Shown one piece after another: positions 1 to 57,121 of a DNA stretch of 64,000 nt. Each line of letters starts with the position of its first letter. The stretch's first letter is position 1. Origin of the DNA: Gammaproteobacteria bacterium. GTDB lineage: Bacteria > Pseudomonadota > Gammaproteobacteria > SpSt-1174. The stretch lies in NCBI GenBank assembly GCA_037388465.1, contig JARRKE010000014.1, positions 19,848 to 83,847 of the forward strand, written 5' to 3'. The position numbers were made by a program, and so were the translations under genes. The notes below the pieces were generated by a model. The model ran no database searches and had not been told where the DNA came from. It saw only the letters and a list, made by a program, of their open reading frames with translations.

Positions 1-35
1 CGCAGACCCTGTCGCATAACGGCACCCTGACGCTG

Positions 36-1457
36 TTGAGCGGCGACACCGGCAATTACCAGGGCACTGCCGTGCAGGACTTTCAATCCACGCAGGGACA
101 ACTGACCGAGGCGGGATACGAACACCGTTTCGGCTCCCGTTGGCGGGCGGCGGCGCGCATCGTTTCGCTGCATGGGCATGAGGATGTCGCGAACCACGAA
201 ACCGCCGTCGGGGCGGTGGAATACAACAATCGCGATAACAGCCAGGATTACCAGCTGCATGTCATGCAGGACAGCCTCGGACACAACGGCAGCTGGCTGG
301 ACACGAGATTCACCGGCCGGCGCTGGACGAACCGCTTCGGGCTGTACCGCATGGACCCCGGACTGCTGTGGACCGACGCCCCCATCATCAACGACACCCA
401 GGGCGTCTACGCACGCGCCGACCTGAGCCGCTCGTTATACAACGTCAACCTGGGCGGTGACTGGTCGCAAACCAACCTCAACGACGATCCCACGCTTGCC
501 GGCATCGATTACACCAACCTGTACGCCAACGGCAATTACCGGCTCAACTATAAGCTGACGATCGGCGGCAGCCTGACCTACCAGAATGCCGCCGCGCGCT
601 CGGGAACAGCGACCCAGGACTCGGATAGCACCTCGCTCTCCGGGCGCCTGAGCCAGCAGAGCTCGCTCGGCACCACGCGCTACCAGCTGACCTGGAACGA
701 AAACCACATGGGGAATTTCAGGGGACAGGGCAACAAACTCAGCATCGATCACGACTGGTATCCCAACAGTGCGCTGCAACTGACCACCTCGCTCAGCGGT
801 GAACGGGCGGACACCTCCGACGGCTCGACCGAGCGCCTGGATACCGGCGTCGTCTGGCGGCAGTCCGTGACGGGGAATTTCAACTGGTCAGGCGGCGTGG
901 GCTATACGCAGGTCACAGGTACCGGCGCGACGAATAATTTCAATGCCACGGTCCAGGGTGATTGGCAGATCAGCGACGAGTGGGCGGTCAGCCTGCGCGG
1001 CGGCTGGAACCAATTGAAATACCAGGACATCGTGTCGATCCCCGGCTACACCCCCACCGACCGGCAAACCGAAAGCAGCGTCTACCTCAGCGTGCGTTAT
1101 ACCCGCACCGAGGGCACTCCGCTGATCGCCTTCGGCCGCCGCTATGGCGCAACTGCCGGTTACGGCCGCGTCTCGGGCCAGGTCTTCCTGGACGAAAACC
1201 GCGACGGCATTCGTGAAGCAAACGAAAAGGTGCTCCCCGGCCTGACCGTCATTCTCGACGGCCAGTACCCGACCCAGACCGACAGTCAGGGACGGTTCAG
1301 CTTCGAGCCGGTACCGACCGGGCCGCACATGGTGCAGATTGCCATTCAGGACGTACCCCTGCCCTGGGGGCTGGAAAAGAACGACCGGTTCAAGGTTTCG
1401 GTGCCGGTCCGCGGCACGGCTGAACTGCCGATTCCGCTGGTGAAGTTGAATAACTGA
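36..1457 (+). CDS. Outer-membrane beta-barrel-like protein ending in an SdrD-B/Cna-B (carboxypeptidase-regulatory-like) domain; the 5' end runs off the window
   Basis: The ORF reaches position 1 with no start codon in the window. Its composition is rich in N/T/S/G/Y/W/Q with alternating hydrophobic residues, typical of beta-barrel OMPs. The C-terminal approximately 90 aa (SGQVFLDENRDGIREANEKVLPGLTVILDG...TQTDSQGRFSFEPVPTGPHMV) matches the SdrD-B / Cna-B-type fold signature. Whether it is an usher for the adjacent pilin genes cannot be decided by eye; it is convergent to them. Confidence 0.45.
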   Translation: MSGDTGNYQGTAVQDFQSTQGQLTEAGYEHRFGSRWRAAARIVSLHGHEDVANHETAVGAVEYNNRDNSQDYQLHVMQDSLGHNGSWLDTRFTGRRWTNRFGLYRMDPGLLWTDAPIINDTQGVYARADLSRSLYNVNLGGDWSQTNLNDDPTLAGIDYTNLYANGNYRLNYKLTIGGSLTYQNAAARSGTATQDSDSTSLSGRLSQQSSLGTTRYQLTWNENHMGNFRGQGNKLSIDHDWYPNSALQLTTSLSGERADTSDGSTERLDTGVVWRQSVTGNFNWSGGVGYTQVTGTGATNNFNATVQGDWQISDEWAVSLRGGWNQLKYQDIVSIPGYTPTDRQTESSVYLSVRYTRTEGTPLIAFGRRYGATAGYGRVSGQVFLDENRDGIREANEKVLPGLTVILDGQYPTQTDSQGRFSFEPVPTGPHMVQIAIQDVPLPWGLEKNDRFKVSVPVRGTAELPIPLVKLNN

Positions 1458-1730
1458 TTGCCGTGAGGAGTAAGGGGACAAACGTGAGGTGATAGGGGTA
1501 AGGAGTGAGGAGGTGGCAGTGTCTTTTCGCCTTACCCTTCACGTTTCACCACTCCCCCTCCCGTCTTGCCGAGCAGCCGATGGGTAGCTCGGTGAGAGGA
1601 AGACTGATGGCGATTTGTTAGGTTATTGGAATTGTTTCTGCATGCTTGGGGCCCAGTTAGACAGGTGATTGGTATTGTTTCGCACGCTATTGAGCTGGGA
1701 TTTCCCTATCTAACACCCATTGAAGCGTGC

Positions 1731-1975
1731 GAGTCTCTTTCTTTACTTGCCCAAAGAAAGAGACGAAAGAAAGGCGCCCCCACCGCCTTGGCCCTACGGG
1801 CTATCCTCGCATCCGCCTACTTGCGACGGGTCGGTTCGACACGACGTCCTCGGCAATTGCTCCTGCATTGCCCTACCTCCTGCATCCATGCAGTCGTGTC
1901 GTGACGAACCTCAGCCCGGCGTCCTTGCCGGGCTGACCCTGCAATCCAGCAGCTGCTCGGCAAGGCGGAACGGGG
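1731..1975 (+). ncRNA. Candidate structured ncRNA core (copy A) of the repeated element
   Basis: There is a perfect 12-bp hairpin at 1733-1764 (gtctctttcttt / aaagaaagagac). The homologous position in copy B is a perfect 13-bp hairpin of different sequence (ggtactttctctt / aagagaaagtacc), i.e. multiple compensatory changes. Additional conserved stems are cagcccggc..gccgggctg, ccttgccg..cggcaagg, and the near-palindrome ctgcatccatgcag. In a second stem a G/A difference between copies still leaves pairing possible as G-U only if the + strand is the RNA. Confidence 0.35.
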
Positions 1976-2026
1976 ATATTGGTAAGGCGTGAAACGTGAG
2001 GGGTAAGGCGAAAAGACACTGCCATC

Positions 2027-2082
2027 GCCTTACCCCTTACGCCTTACGCCTTACGCCTTACGCCTTACGCCTTACGCCTTAC
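2027..2082. repeat. Tandem heptanucleotide repeat (GCCTTAC)x8, one unit degenerate (CCCTTAC). It ends 2 nt before the stop codon of the convergent minus-strand chaperone-like gene
   Basis: Read directly: gccttac cccttac gccttac x6. It is the 3' terminal part of repeat copy A. Confidence 0.9.
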
Positions 2083-2084
2083 GA

Positions 2085-2894
2085 TTATTTCAATCGCGCA
2101 TCAACATCCTTCTGCCCACCATCCCAAAGGATGCGGCCCTTGAGATGCAGGGGCACGTGGATCTTGATCTTGGTATCCACCCCTTCGGCATTCATCGGCC
2201 AGATCGGCACCATGCGCGTCTGACCAGGCAGGATCGGCAAGGGCGCCACACTGAAATCCACCTGCTGGTTGGATGAATCCTGCCCCGACAGCATGCCCTG
2301 CGGCCGTCCGTGTGCGTTACCTTTGTTGGTGATTATCGCAACGGGGGTCAGATGCCCGTTGACCCGGTGCAGTTCCAGGCGATCCACCTTGAGCCGTGGA
2401 TGGGCGTCCCCGACGCGGACATAGACGATAACCGCGATCCGGCCCTCGACCGGAAACTCGATGTCGCCCGCCTTGGCCATGACGCTCTGATCGGCCGGAG
2501 AAAGCAACAAGGCCACCCGGCATTCCCCGGCCTTGGCATCCTTGGGCACATGCACCTCGAAGCGGTACAGGTGATCCGCCTTGGGCGCCAGACTCAAGTT
2601 ACGCCGCTCGATACGCACCCAGGGACGGCAACTGCCGGGCTGAAGTTCGGGCGGAAAGATCCTCACGCCACCATTGGGCTGCAGAGCCCAGTCGGCGGTG
2701 CGTACCCGCAATTTGGTCTCGTAAACGTCCGGGTTGGTGAGCCGCACCACCTGGCGCACGACCTGCCCGGGTTTGGCCTGCAATTCGAACCGTCCCGGCG
2801 CCACCATGAGCGTAAAGGTCTTGGCCGACAATGCCGGCGGCATCAGGCTCAACAGGGCCAGGCTGAACCATCCAATGGTTTTAAGGAGTTTCAC
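2085..2894 (-). CDS. Putative periplasmic pilus/fimbrial chaperone-like protein (signal peptide, approximately 269 aa), last gene of the pilin cluster
   Basis: It has an N-terminal signal peptide (MKLLKTIGWFSLALLSLMPPALSA) and the size typical of PapD/CsuC-like chaperones. It sits immediately downstream of three small secreted pilin-like genes with 4-bp overlaps. The fold assignment is an inference; it was not verified by motif. Confidence 0.4.
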   Translation of the reverse strand: MKLLKTIGWFSLALLSLMPPALSAKTFTLMVAPGRFELQAKPGQVVRQVVRLTNPDVYETKLRVRTADWALQPNGGVRIFPPELQPGSCRPWVRIERRNLSLAPKADHLYRFEVHVPKDAKAGECRVALLLSPADQSVMAKAGDIEFPVEGRIAVIVYVRVGDAHPRLKVDRLELHRVNGHLTPVAIITNKGNAHGRPQGMLSGQDSSNQQVDFSVAPLPILPGQTRMVPIWPMNAEGVDTKIKIHVPLHLKGRILWDGGQKDVDARLK

Positions 2895-3376
2895 GGTTGA
2901 ATCTGGATCTCGAATTCGGGTTTCAGGGTGATGGTGCCGGTCACGTAGCGTGCGTCCAGATGAAATGTCATGTCGAACAGGTCGCGCATGACGGCCTCGG
3001 TGATGGGGCCATTGTAAATGGGGACGGCTTCACCGGGAACTGCCGTCCCCGAAGCGAAGGTTCCGAGCTCGGTGGTCCAGTTGACGCGCAGACCGCCCGG
3101 CCGACTCAACCCCTGGGGGGAAAGCGGCATGCGCAGAAAGATCTGCGCATGCTTGCCGATATAGTCCTGGGTACGCAGGCGGATGTCGATCTTGACGTGG
3201 CCGACGATCGCATTGAGCTGTTCCGCGCTCAGTCGCCGACCCGGCGTCGGCACATAAGCCCATTGCAGTTGCGGGACAACGTTCTGTTGCGGGGAAAGGG
3301 AATCGTCCAGGCGCTCCATGGCGCCCGCCGCCGGCATCCAGAGCATTAACGCAAGCAGGAAGGACCAGGTCTTCAT
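2891..3376 (-). CDS. Small secreted protein (161 aa), a possible minor pilin-like subunit
   Basis: It has a signal peptide (MKTWSFLLALMLWMPAAGA). It is translationally coupled to the flanking genes (4-bp overlaps at both ends). Its C-terminal YVTGTITLKPEF resembles the Y-x-G-T-V-T motif of the neighbouring pilin-like proteins. Confidence 0.4.
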   Translation of the reverse strand: MKTWSFLLALMLWMPAAGAMERLDDSLSPQQNVVPQLQWAYVPTPGRRLSAEQLNAIVGHVKIDIRLRTQDYIGKHAQIFLRMPLSPQGLSRPGGLRVNWTTELGTFASGTAVPGEAVPIYNGPITEAVMRDLFDMTFHLDARYVTGTITLKPEFEIQIQP

Positions 3377-3936
3377 TGCATGGTCGCCGTGTAAGTGACC
3401 GTACCGGTATAGGTACCGGGCGCGACGACCTGGCTGTTGGCGTAATAGAAGGTCTGATCCACGTAAACCTGTTTTGAGCCGGTAAAGGTCAGCAAAACCT
3501 GGTTCGCCGATCCGTCGAAACGCCCCGAAGGAATATCACTGTCCGAAGAGGTCCAGCCAATCTCGGTAAAAGGAATGGTATACGTGTTGTTGCTGAGGGG
3601 CGTGCTCGAATTGGCCGTCAAGGTCACCGTCACGCCGCCGAGAAACTCGGCCCACAGGGAGGATTGCGCGGCGACCGACACCCGGACCGGCTGCGACGTG
3701 GCCTGCAGAGGCGTGTTGTCGCCCACCTGGCCGGCGGGCACCTGAAAACTGACCGTATCGACGGAACCGGTCGGGCTGCCCACCTGAAGCACCAAACGCC
3801 CCGTAAAGAACTTGTAGACACCGAGCGTCACCGTTACCGCGTGGGCCGGACTGGAAAACAAAAACAGGCAACCCAGCATCAGCCAGGTTGCCTTTTTCAA
3901 TCCTGAAGGTATGAAGCGCATTTTAGTTATGACCAC
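3373..3936 (-). CDS. Secreted pilin-like protein, resembling the spore-coat-U (SCPU) / Csu-type archaic chaperone-usher subunits
   Basis: It has a signal peptide ending ...SSPAHA. Its C-terminal motif YANSQVVAPGTYTGTVTYTATMQ is shared with the upstream gene product (YANNSVVPAGTYTGQVTYTAATP). The likely start is GTG at 3936, with AAGG about 7 nt upstream. The next in-frame ATG (MRFIPS...) would give a start at 3921. Confidence 0.5.
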   Translation of the reverse strand: MVITKMRFIPSGLKKATWLMLGCLFLFSSPAHAVTVTLGVYKFFTGRLVLQVGSPTGSVDTVSFQVPAGQVGDNTPLQATSQPVRVSVAAQSSLWAEFLGGVTVTLTANSSTPLSNNTYTIPFTEIGWTSSDSDIPSGRFDGSANQVLLTFTGSKQVYVDQTFYYANSQVVAPGTYTGTVTYTATMQ

Positions 3937-3967
3937 TCGCCTTTACCTGTCCTGCTGATAGTGTAGC

Positions 3968-3991
3968 AAGCCCCTTGCGGGGCTTGCTGAC
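3968..3991 (-). terminator. Strong stem-loop (agcaagcccc ttgc ggggcttgct) between the first (major-subunit-like) pilin gene and the following genes; a candidate attenuator or partial terminator
   Basis: A 10-bp GC-rich perfect stem with a 4-nt loop, immediately downstream of the stop of the 4007-4588 gene on the minus strand. This arrangement is classic in fimbrial operons for setting major versus minor subunit stoichiometry. Confidence 0.4.
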
Positions 3992-4006
3992 ACTCTAACC
4001 GGCGCC

Positions 4007-4588
4007 TTACGGCGTGGCCGCGGTGTAGGTCACCTGGCCGGTGTAGGTACCCGCCGGCACCACACTGTTGTTGGCGTAGCTGTAGGTCCAGGTCGCCGTA
4101 CGCGTGGTCACCGAGCTCGCCCCATTCAGGGTCGGCTGCACCGCGGTACCGCCCGCATTGCTCAAGGTCGGGGTGGGCAGGTTGCTGTCGCTCGACGTGG
4201 CGGTAATATCGCTCCAGCTGATATTGTTGCCGGCGCCGTCGCTCAGCCCCGAAGCGCTGTTGTTGGTCGGGGTGATGGTGACCTGGCCGGCATTGCTGCG
4301 CAGCACGACGTTCACCGCGCCACCGCCCGCGTCACCGCCGGTACCGGCCACCGCGGTGCCGTCGCCGACATTGGCGCCCGGTACGTTGAAGCCGATCTGG
4401 TCGATGGTGGCACCCGCCGTACCGACCCGGAAGTAGAGGAAGGCTGGCACCACGACCTGGAAGTCCAGCTTGGCCGAGGCATTCAGCGCGCCGCCGCCAG
4501 TCGCCGAGGTGGATTGCGCGGCGGCGATGCCGGGAACGGTCGCCATAGCCAGCGCAGCCGAAAGGATGATTGTCTTCATGGTGTTCAT
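4007..4588 (-). CDS. Secreted Gly/Ala/Thr-rich pilin-like protein (putative major subunit), first gene of the cluster
   Basis: The start ATG at 4588 has GAGGAG 7 nt upstream. The signal peptide is MNTMKTIILSAALAMATVPGIAAAQS. The C-terminal motif AGTYTGQVTYTA is shared with the next gene. The sequence is low-complexity G/A/T/S/N-rich, typical of fimbrial major subunits. Confidence 0.5.
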   Translation of the reverse strand: MNTMKTIILSAALAMATVPGIAAAQSTSATGGGALNASAKLDFQVVVPAFLYFRVGTAGATIDQIGFNVPGANVGDGTAVAGTGGDAGGGAVNVVLRSNAGQVTITPTNNSASGLSDGAGNNISWSDITATSSDSNLPTPTLSNAGGTAVQPTLNGASSVTTRTATWTYSYANNSVVPAGTYTGQVTYTAATP

Positions 4589-4893
4589 TTTTGCTCTCCT
4601 CGGGGTCTTTGCCTCACGGCAGTTGCCCCATGTATAAATCGCTCGTTGTGGGCCAAACCTCATTCAGTACATTAAGTTTCTTTCCTTGGTTGTAATCCTA
4701 GCCAAGCGACCGTCGCCAAACCTTGAAGGGCGTCACATTTCTGACGTCCCTACCTGTGGATAAGCGTGATTTCCGTCACAACCCGCTCAACACGCCCCTA
4801 GAGAGCCGGATTCGGAAGGGTCCTGCAGGCTTGTTTGCGCCATCGCGATGGACGGCGTGGTAGAATTCCGCTCTTTTCTAATGCACCGGCCGC

Positions 4894-6789
4894 ATGACAC
4901 AGCCTGACTATCCGTTGCTCGAGGGCATCGACAGCCCCGCCGACTTGCGCGCCCTGCCGCAAAAGTCGCTACGGGCTGTGTGCGACGAACTGCGCCGATT
5001 CCTGCTGCAGTCGGTATCGAGTTCGGGGGGGCATCTCGCCGCGAATCTCGGCGTGGTGGAGCTGACCGTCGCCCTGCACTATGTCTTCCAGACACCTGAT
5101 GACCGCCTGGTCTGGGATGTGGGACACCAGACTTATCCCCATAAGGTATTGACCGGACGCCGCGACCGCCTGCACACCATTCGCCAGAAGGACGGCCTGT
5201 CCGGCTTCCCGAGCCGTAGCGAAAGCCCGTACGACGCCTTCGGCGTGGGACATTCCAGCACCTCCATCAGCGCGGCGCTGGGCATGGCGCTGGCCGCGGA
5301 ACGCGCCGGCGAAGACCGGCAGAGCGTGGCCATCATCGGCGACGGCGCGATGACGGCTGGCATGGCCTACGAGGCCCTGAATCACGCCGGCGACCTCAAG
5401 GCCAATCTGCTGGTCATCCTCAACGACAACGAAATGTCCATCTCCCCCAACGTCGGGGCGCTTAACAAATACTTCGCGCGCGTGCTGTCCGGGCGCATTT
5501 ACTCGACCATGCGCGAGGGCGGCAAGCAGGTGCTCAAGAACATGCCACCTATGTGGGAACTGGCGCGCCGCGCCGAAGAGCACATGAAGGGCATGATCAT
5601 CCCCGGCACCCTGTTCGAGGAGATGGGATTCCAGTACTTCGGCCCCATCGACGGCCACGACGTCGACGGCCTGGTAAAGATGCTGCACAACCTGCACGGA
5701 CTGCAGGGCCCCCGCCTGCTCCACATCAGCACCCGCAAGGGCAAGGGGTACGCCCCGGCCGAGGCCGACCCGGTCGCCTACCACGGCGTGGGACGCTTCG
5801 ACCCCGATACCGGCCTGACCGCCGGCAAGACCGGCGGCGCCCCCACCTATACCGAGGTCTTCGGTTCCTGGCTCTGCGACATGGCCGAACAAGACGAGCG
5901 CCTGCTCGCCATCACCCCGGCCATGCGCGAAGGCTCGGGGCTGGTCGAATTCTCCGAGCGCTTCCCGGAACGCTATTTCGACGTGGGCATTGCCGAACAG
6001 CACGCGGTGACCCTGGCCGCGGGCATGGCCTGCGAGAATGCCAAACCCGTGGTCGCCATTTATTCCACCTTTTTGCAGCGCGGCTACGACCAGCTGATTC
6101 ACGACGTGGCGCTGCAGAACCTGCCGGTATTGTTCGCCCTCGACCGCGCCGGCCTGGTCGGCCCGGACGGCGCCACCCACGCCGGCAGCTTCGACCTCTC
6201 CTATCTGCGCTGCATCCCGAATCTGGTGGTGATGGCGCCCGCCGACGAAAACGAGTGCCGGCAGATGCTGTATACCGGCTACCGACATGCAGGCCCGGCA
6301 GCCGTACGCTACCCGCGTGGCAAGGGCCCGGGCGCGGCGGTTCAGGCCGAGATGCAGGCCATTCCGCTGGGCAAGGCCCAGCAACTGCGCAAGGGCAAGC
6401 GCATCGCCCTGCTTTCCTTCGGGGGGCTGCTGCAAGAGGCGCGGGCCGCCGCGGAGGCACTCGATGCCACCCTTATCAACATGCGCTTCGTCAAACCGCT
6501 GGACACCGAGATGATCCTGCGCCTGGCCAACAGCCACGAACTCCTGGTGACCGTGGAGGACAACGTCATCGGCGGGGGCGCCGGCAGCGCCGTCAACGAA
6601 TGCCTGGCCGAGCACGACCACCGCGCCTGCCTGCTCAACCTAGGCCTGCCCGACCGCTTTATCGAACACGGCGCACGCGAGGCGCTGCTGGCCGAGTGCG
6701 GCCTGGACGCCGCCGGCATCCGCCATGCCGTGGAGGCCTGGATCAACAATGGGGATTGCGAGGGACGCCGCCCTCAGTTAATATCCTAG
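4894..6789 (+). CDS. dxs: 1-deoxy-D-xylulose-5-phosphate synthase
   Basis: 631 aa with full-length similarity to Dxs, including the TPP-binding GDGAxT(A/G)G motif and typical N-terminal and C-terminal blocks. Confidence 0.95.
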
Positions 6790-56599: not shown

Positions 56600-57121
56600 C
56601 GGTACTTTAGAGGTTGGTGGTTTTGTTTTATATGTTTTGAGTTTTCGTTTTCGGTTGGAAAGGCGCGGGGTTTTGTTGTGCGGCCTTGTCTACAGTTTCG
56701 CATTAGAAATGGAAGTATTTGAATTTCGCGCTCTTGAGGCCGGGATTTTTTGTCTGATGCGTTCGCACAGCGCGAGGTACTTTCTCTTGCGTGCCCAAGA
56801 GAAAGTACCCAAAGAGAAGGGCACCCCCACCGTCTTGGCCTTCGGCTTCCCTCACAACCGCTGACTTGCGACGGGCACGGTCCGACGCGACGTCCTCGGC
56901 AACTGCTCCTGCGTTGCTCTACCTCCTGCATCCATGCAGTCGTGTCGCGGCGAACCTCAGCCCGGCGTCCCTGCCGGGCTGACCCTGCAAGCCACCGGTT
57001 GCTCGGCAAGGCGGGACGGGGTTTACGGTGAAGGGTGAGACGTAAGGCGTGAGGAGCAATTCGGCGCTTCGTTTGTCACCGCACCTCTCATCTCCTTACT
57101 CCTCCCCCTTCACACCTTACC
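56600..57121 (+). repeat. Copy B of the two-copy structured repeat element: a G+T-rich leader, a conserved core at 56774-57020, and heptamer-rich inverted 3' flanks ending 3 nt before the rlmH stop
   Basis: The core aligns with 1731-1975. The 3' flank carries GTGAAGG/GTGAGAC/GTAAGGC/GTGAGGA units followed by CTCCTTA/CTCCTCC/CCCTTCA/CACCTTAC units, i.e. inverted CCTTAC-type heptamers. Confidence 0.6.
56774..57020 (+). ncRNA. Candidate structured ncRNA core (copy B)
   Basis: There is a perfect 13-bp hairpin at 56776-56809, with a conserved loop end (tgccc) and a stem that compensates relative to copy A. Conserved downstream stems and palindromes are identical or near-identical to copy A. Confidence 0.35.

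Follow-up and report, generated by a model that had tools for sequence, protein, structure and literature searches.

The outer-membrane usher of chaperone–usher pili is a 24-stranded barrel that encloses a plug and carries one N-terminal and two C-terminal domains, and in the archaic (Csu/CupE) and alternate (CFA/I, class 5) systems the gene of the major subunit stands first among those of paralogous, Sec-exported small subunits and is followed by a hairpin. The WxL clusters of Gram-positive bacteria encode small and large WxL proteins plus a WxLIP that consists of DUF916, DUF3324 and a transmembrane segment (PMC10599100, PMC9772566). The WxLIP is reported to be a strand donor that completes the β-sandwich of the WxL protein, and a hairpin loop of the WxLIP that is disordered alone is predicted to become the completing strand (PMC10599100). 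Here, we describe a gene cluster at the left end of a stretch of 64 000 nucleotides (the window) from a Gammaproteobacteria bacterium (GenBank assembly GCA_037388465.1, contig JARRKE010000014.1). In a preliminary description, four minus-strand genes at 2085–4663 had been taken for an archaic, Csu/SCPU-like pilin cluster that has a chaperone-like gene but no usher. We find that the cluster is complete and that the partial gene on the opposite strand is its conserved fifth member. This five-gene module (A–B–C–D, minus strand; E, plus strand) is known from its genes and predicted folds, and on balance we hold, with reserve, that it builds a fibre or an array of proteins at the surface in a chaperone–usher-like manner. 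Its parts are as follows.

Gene A: 4007–4588, minus strand; 193 amino acids, putative major subunit with a signal peptide, rich in Thr, Ala, Gly and Ser.
Hairpin: 3960–3994, minus strand; GC-rich, 15 bp with a GCAA loop, between A and B.
Gene B: 3373–3921, minus strand; 182 amino acids from an ATG start, minor subunit, paralogue of A.
Gene C: 2891–3376, minus strand; 161 amino acids, secreted protein of a separate family.
Gene D: 2085–2894, minus strand; 269 amino acids, periplasmic chaperone-like protein with two immunoglobulin (Ig)-like domains.
Inverted-repeat element: 1449–2089, no strand assigned; about 640 bp, between the stops of D and E, not part of the system.
Gene E: 1–1457 (open reading frame 36–1457), plus strand; C-terminal 484 of 764 amino acids, with the start to the left of the window.

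The 85 loci that encode a relative of D were fetched and their open reading frames were classified against A–E. Protein E is encoded within the cluster in 82 of them, and in 73 of the 85 its gene is convergent and directly follows that of D, with a median stop-to-stop gap of 11 nt (range −29 to 545 nt). Elsewhere it lies upstream and co-oriented (six loci), upstream and divergent (two loci) or downstream and co-oriented (one locus, L078), and it was not seen in three loci, one of which is at a contig end. Because E is normally convergent in this family, the cluster in the window is complete and not a remnant. The earlier statement that no usher gene is present downstream is literally correct, as none is co-oriented there, but an outer-membrane partner is not lacking, and the plus-strand, outer-membrane-protein-like gene that had been noted as convergent encodes a conserved partner of the cluster. 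The proposal of an usher-less remnant disrupted by the element is likewise contradicted, both by the usual convergent position of E and by the intact ends of D and E. The outcome comes close to a case that the preliminary description had set against itself, in which 36–1457 is a bona fide usher in an unusual but complete system, except that the usher model PF00577 is not matched.

The D–E gap of 627 nt in the window exceeds those of all 73 convergent relatives and is filled by the element. Since both D and E end like their homologues, the element is an intergenic insertion and not a disruption. It has 101 nt inverted arms that are 77% complementary and an array of 8.3 CGCCTTA heptamers at 2026–2083, while its core (1825–1941, minus strand) gives a sub-threshold match to the TwoAYGGAY RNA (RF01731; 37.5 bits, gathering score 43). 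A second copy at 56847–57059, which is 86% identical across 182 nt, passes the Rfam threshold with 44.4 bits. An assembly artefact is ruled out, as the arrangement is identical on two metagenome contigs of the Joint Genome Institute (JGI). These encode an identical D protein, and the independent JGI gene calls give the same sizes of 193, 182, 161 and 269 amino acids for A–D. JGI contig L092 stops a few hundred nucleotides past D, within the element, and L093 spans it.

In the window, the five-gene module adjoins dxs (1–6789), and in the syntenic loci L004 and L015 ispA and xseB are found on its other side (L004, 6294–14881); it thus lies inside the usually contiguous xseB–ispA–dxs set. In other relatives the module is found in unrelated genomic neighbourhoods. 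The five genes thus move as a set and seem to form a self-contained mobile unit. Environmental Beta- and Gammaproteobacteria commonly carry the module, among them Usitatibacter, Thiothrix, Acidiferrobacterales, Woeseiaceae and Thermomonas. A complete A–B–C–D/E set typical of Gammaproteobacteria is also present on a 5 kb contig binned as 'Halobacteria archaeon' (L014, JABDRC010000035.1), an assignment that is most likely a binning error.

Pfam and NCBIfam models were scanned with the five window proteins at E ≤ 1 and with family members at E ≤ 0.1 to 1, the Pfam scans covering 38–42 relatives of each family individually. No match to PF05229, PF14352, PF00419, PF00345, PF02753 or PF00577 was found in the window proteins or in these relatives, and A–D of the window match no model of either database. 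The HMMER searches recommended in the preliminary description, with the SCPU, DUF4402, PapD and usher models, therefore came back empty, and A–D are not members of the SCPU, DUF4402 or PapD families. In particular, the assignment to Csu/SCPU has to be abandoned, since PF05229 is unmatched in A, B and C and in their 40, 38 and 42 relatives, respectively. The C-terminal G-x-Y-x-G-x-V-T-Y-T of A and its N-terminal strand are features that we take to be SCPU-like, although an SCPU match was not found. In the source records A–E are annotated as 'hypothetical', apart from labels on some D and E proteins.

Protein D is predicted by AlphaFold2 to consist of a signal peptide and two β-sandwich domains, with a mean predicted local distance difference test (pLDDT) score of 90.4. 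The model ends in β strands at residue 268, without a C-terminal helix. The first match in a Foldseek search of the PDB is the WxLIP of E. faecium (9i1y/9i25, E = 2e-10), followed by CfaA, CsuC, YadV, EcpB, FimC, DraB, Caf1M and PapD (E = 7e-9 to 1e-6); more than 25 chains of chaperone–usher chaperones together with WxLIP fall within E = 1e-10 to 1e-6. When the D-family profile is compared with the PDB, EfmWxLIP1 is found at E = 2e-4, while PapD-like chaperones are absent up to E = 10. The sole recurrent Pfam signal is WxLIP_PGBD (DUF916, PF06030), which is seen in 11 of 41 D relatives with a best E value of 1e-7; D of the window stays under the cut-off (E = 0.28). PapD_N and PapD_C match neither D (E ≤ 1) nor the 41 family members (E ≤ 0.1), and the Pfam scan of D family members gave no match to DUF3324, the second domain of WxLIP. 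From its sequence, D thus appears to be a remote homologue of the first domain of WxLIP that falls short of the Pfam gathering score. The chaperone-like periplasmic protein of 269 residues postulated earlier is borne out at the level of the predicted fold, which is a PapD/WxLIP-like pair of Ig domains, but not as a member of the PapD family, even though some D proteins carry automated 'fimbrial chaperone' or 'PapD' labels in their source annotation.

Cys89 and Cys125, the only two cysteines of D, are invariant in the family together with Arg35, and Arg152 is nearly invariant. Arg35 is located in the first strand of D. Arg152 lies where the final strand of domain 1 begins, GRIAVIVYV, in which hydrophobic residues alternate. 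The hairpin preceding this strand (residues ∼131–150) is the sole weak internal segment of the model. In the chaperones of chaperone–usher systems, the F1–G1 loop and the G1 donor strand occupy this position, and in PapD the pair Arg8/Lys112 anchors the C-terminus of the subunit. Arg35 and Arg152 of D recall this pair, a resemblance that we would read as an analogy.

The part of E that is encoded in the window is 100% identical to the C-terminus of a 764-residue protein (P0121) from a metagenome-assembled genome (MAG) of Gammaproteobacteria. We take the sequence of this protein as that of full-length E, the remainder of whose gene the preliminary description had suggested looking for to the left of the window. 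The model of E (pLDDT 81 overall, above 90 in the barrel) contains a signal-peptide-like helix, a disordered stretch, 26 strands (168–650) and a seven-stranded C-terminal sandwich (667–761). The loops of the predicted barrel are short and no plug is inserted. The disordered stretch of about 120 residues (P0121 residues 41–161), which is rich in Ala, Pro and Thr and is encoded to the left of window position 1, is missing from most homologues, which have about 666 amino acids. A short Y-x-D-x-x-I motif is conserved ahead of the barrel in the E family. The only domain found in the Pfam and NCBIfam scan is SdrD B-like or CarboxypepD_reg-like and is located at the C-terminus, and some E proteins are indeed annotated as 'SdrD B-like' in the source records. 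The 14 best PDB matches in Foldseek are the ushers FimD and PapC (E = 2e-12 to 2e-7). At the sequence level, Pfam scans of four E proteins gave no match to PF00577, and a comparison of the E profile with the PDB returned no usher but only the SdrD B-like domain. The pore of E belongs to no described family, and we consider E to be the conserved partner of A–D and a putative usher equivalent.

Proteins A and B end in YSYANNSVVPAGTYTGQVTYTAATP and FYYANSQVVAPGTYTGTVTYTATMQ, respectively, so the C-terminal motif that they had been said to share is real; in the A family it reads W-T-Y-x-Y-x-N...AGTYxGxVTYTAxxP. The two families align across their full length (hhalign probability 99.8, E = 2.5e-30), and on this profile comparison A and B are to be regarded as clear paralogues. 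They differ by a segment of about 15 residues, 'sAxAxLDFxIxIP', which follows the signal peptide of A and is opposite a gap in B, while the C-terminus is invariant in length in both families. The alternating hydrophobic residues of the N-terminal segment of A, which B does not have, and the conserved C-terminal strand are indications of a candidate incomplete Ig fold with an N-terminal donor strand. Family A comprises more than 633 proteins, all 'hypothetical' and without a Pfam domain, and one or two copies are present per locus among the relatives. Protein C is found in nearly all core loci, and RLDDSLSP is conserved where the mature protein begins; profile comparison shows C to be unrelated to A (probability 6%) and at most weakly related to B (36%). 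Individual scans of the 40, 38 and 42 members of families A, B and C gave no Pfam match, including SCPU, DUF4402, Fimbrial and WxL, and MrpH_C was touched weakly by three B members at a non-significant E value of 0.045. A cytochrome conduit was ruled out, since a sequence check of A–D revealed no haem (CXXCH) motif; lipoprotein signals were not found in A–D either. The cyanobacterial CT pilus was also considered and is unrelated. In some MAGs of Burkholderiales/Betaproteobacteria, two A–B–C–D sets are neighbours (L043, L045 and L052): the second set follows E in L043 and L045, and the two sets are divergent in L052.

All four minus-strand reading frames were located at the coordinates given in the preliminary description. 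For gene A, the longest reading frame does reach 4663 as described, but the start is most likely at 4588 (MNTMK, with GAGGAG 7 nt upstream), which gives 193 residues. Gene B most likely starts with the ATG at 3921, a GTG at 3936 being possible. The stop of B overlaps the start of C by 4 nt (ATGA), as does the stop of C with the start of D (GTGA), and B, C and D are therefore translationally coupled. This does not extend to A, as had been assumed, since about 85 nt with the hairpin lie between A and B. Signal-peptide-like N-termini are present on A, B, C and D, and mature A is rich in Thr, Ala, Gly and Ser, which agrees with the earlier view of secreted proteins, the first of them Gly/Ala/Thr-rich. 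A promoter scan detected no sigma-70-like promoter upstream of A.

The strong stem-loop that had been noticed after the first gene is confirmed. The 86 nt A–B stretch folds at −39.5 kcal/mol (z = −4.1; 0 of 200 shuffles), and the hairpin, having no U-tract, is not a canonical terminator, whereas the post-A structures of several relatives are textbook terminators with T-runs. Raw hairpin energy failed to separate post-A from coding windows, a comparison that is uninformative because of GC content, and shuffle z-scores and the length of perfect stems were used instead. In 28 of 51 distinct related loci, z is below −2 for the 70 nt that follow the last copy of A, compared with 3/51 and 2/51 for control windows in the coding regions of A and D. 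Perfect stems of at least 10 bp follow A in seven of the 51 loci and do not occur in the controls. This conserved RNA structure supports differential expression of A relative to B–D and with it the major/minor stoichiometry control that had been proposed; the hairpin is probably an attenuator or mRNA stabiliser that keeps A above B, C and D. Together with the predicted fold of D and the paralogy of A and B, it also upholds the broader notion of a pilus-like cluster with major and minor subunits.

The D profile reaches well beyond this core family. A HMMER search of cluster representatives gave 101 matches at E ≤ 1e-30, 848 at E ≤ 1e-10 and 5200 at E ≤ 1e-3, and ten distant members that were scanned included five with a sub-threshold DUF916 signal and none with a PapD signal. 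Two distant relatives (E = 1e-22 to 1e-32 to the D profile) lie in co-oriented operons in which 2–5 small secreted proteins and the D-like gene are accompanied by a protein of 787–903 amino acids with SdrD_B signals. Both the barrel and the C-terminal domain of these large proteins are homologous to those of E (hhalign probability 99%, E = 4e-18 and 4e-19). The small proteins of the distant operons have the C-terminal motif of A and B, here in the form N....GxYxxxxxYTLTAP, and when the distant clusters are aligned only A/B-like small proteins are seen, with up to five paralogues and no evident C. The superfamily thus includes the classical order of subunits, chaperone and pore, and only the core family has the peculiarity of a convergent E. 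Four genes on a plasmid of Deinococcus psychrotolerans (L094, NZ_CP034185.1, 13019–18765), all annotated as 'hypothetical', include one for a D-like protein with two Ig domains (28% identical in domain 1) and one for a 1058-residue SdrD_B protein. This set is perhaps a very remote form of the system in Deinococcota. As distant D relatives, Deinococcus included, have E-like partners, the D–E partnership is ancient.

The evidence leans towards the module being a chaperone and outer-membrane pore that assemble small secreted subunits. In such a system, A as the abundant subunit, B and C would be exported by Sec, and the hairpin after A would keep A in excess. B is a candidate tip or initiator subunit because it does not have the N-terminal strand segment of A. 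D would hold the subunits in the periplasm, probably completing their β-sandwich with a strand from residues ∼131–161, which comprise the hairpin and the last strand of domain 1. We infer that the D–subunit complexes would then dock onto the C-terminal Ig-like domain of E on the periplasmic side, and that the subunits would pass through the predicted 26-stranded barrel and probably polymerise there. C could be a plug, an adaptor or a terminator.

Several observations weigh against this scheme. Profiles of A, B and C, merged subunit profiles and single sequences find only non-significant Ig domains in the PDB (E = 0.1–0.3). The TM-scores of the E model to ushers are only 0.27–0.47, and by this measure the 26-stranded MtrB is as good (0.39/0.45); the model also has neither the plug nor the N-terminal domain of an usher, and 26 strands instead of 24. 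Finally, we know of no WxLIP, the sequence relatives of D, that builds polymers. The module could instead be a diderm counterpart of a WxL cluster without any filament, in which A and B are envelope or surface proteins that stay folded through a stable complex with D, in the manner of WxL and WxLIP, E is an export pore or outer-membrane anchor and nothing polymerises. Its gene content mirrors that of WxL clusters (PMC10599100, PMC9772566), by sequence D is linked to WxLIP/DUF916 alone, and the top structural match is a WxLIP. We nevertheless consider a non-filamentous system of this kind unlikely, since A, B and merged profiles match neither the WxL domain PF13731 nor the WxL chain of 9i25, D has neither the C-terminal membrane helix nor the DUF3324 of a WxLIP, and a high-copy A gene with an attenuator-like hairpin suggests the stoichiometry of a polymer.

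The barrels of MtrB and LptD enclose a partner protein and have no built-in plug. E could accordingly be thought of as a large uptake channel or as a barrel that holds a periplasmic or extracellular partner in the same way, with C, A or B as lumen or cap proteins and D as an assembly factor; the 26 strands, the missing plug, the MtrB TM-score equal to those of ushers, the LptE-like size of C and its constant presence in the core family would all fit. Such a channel is improbable in view of the absence of haem motifs and lipoprotein signals from A–D, of distant clusters that have up to five A/B-like paralogues but no evident C, and of Foldseek E values that place ushers ahead of MtrB and LptD by 5–6 orders of magnitude. 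The original idea of an archaic Csu/SCPU operon whose usher was lost through the repeat element deserves hardly any credence: SCPU, PapD and usher models match no member, the same arrangement exists without any element in 73 loci, and D and E are full length. We therefore retain the chaperone-and-pore assembly of A, B and C as our working model. A further step, that the module represents an undescribed donor-strand assembly class of diderms with a chaperone of WxLIP and not PapD ancestry and a plug-less 26-stranded pore unrelated in sequence to ushers, is possible but doubtful.

If fibres are built, the module would add another branch to chaperone-assisted pilus assembly and would equip abundant bacteria of soil, sediment and wastewater with structures for adhesion or biofilms. 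It would also connect the Gram-positive WxL systems with the Gram-negative chaperone–usher pili, both mechanistically and evolutionarily, and open a new way of testing what WxLIP does. Within the literature library that was searched, we found no account of a Gram-negative WxLIP-like protein, of a barrel partner with an SdrD_B tail or of this subunit family.

Compared with the known systems, the module is closest in layout to the archaic and alternate chaperone–usher pili. It shares with them the paralogous, Sec-exported small subunits, the leading major-subunit gene with its hairpin and a soluble, periplasmic two-Ig protein whose predicted fold matches CfaA, CsuC, FimC, Caf1M and PapD. The pore, too, is predicted to be a large barrel followed by a periplasmic β-sandwich, with FimD and PapC as best PDB matches, and distant relatives keep the order subunits, chaperone, pore. 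Unlike chaperone–usher systems, its proteins are not recognised by PF00345, PF02753, PF00577, PF00419 or PF05229, the pore gene is usually convergent and there is an additional conserved protein C. Unlike ushers, E is predicted to have 26 strands, neither plug nor N-terminal domain and a single C-terminal domain, which is of the SdrD-B/CarboxypepD_reg type. The strand number and the TM-score to MtrB are shared with MtrB/LptD barrels, but cytochrome and lipopolysaccharide-transport partners are absent, and E, which ends in an Ig domain, is linked to genes for chaperone- and subunit-like proteins.

The module differs from the WxL clusters in other respects: WxL motifs are missing from A and B, D has neither a membrane helix nor a DUF3324 signature, and the module resides in diderm Proteobacteria and includes an outer-membrane barrel. 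In common with these clusters, at least two paralogous small secreted β-rich proteins are encoded with one two-Ig protein, and this protein, D, is by sequence a probable remote relative of the first domain of WxLIP, which is also its best structural match. There is a real chance that the module forms a separate class which links the WxL systems of monoderms with the pilus assembly of diderms. If this is true, one ancient surface-assembly machine, parallel to the classical chaperone–usher pili, would exist in two versions, the WxL/WxLIP complexes in monoderms and the present system in diderms.

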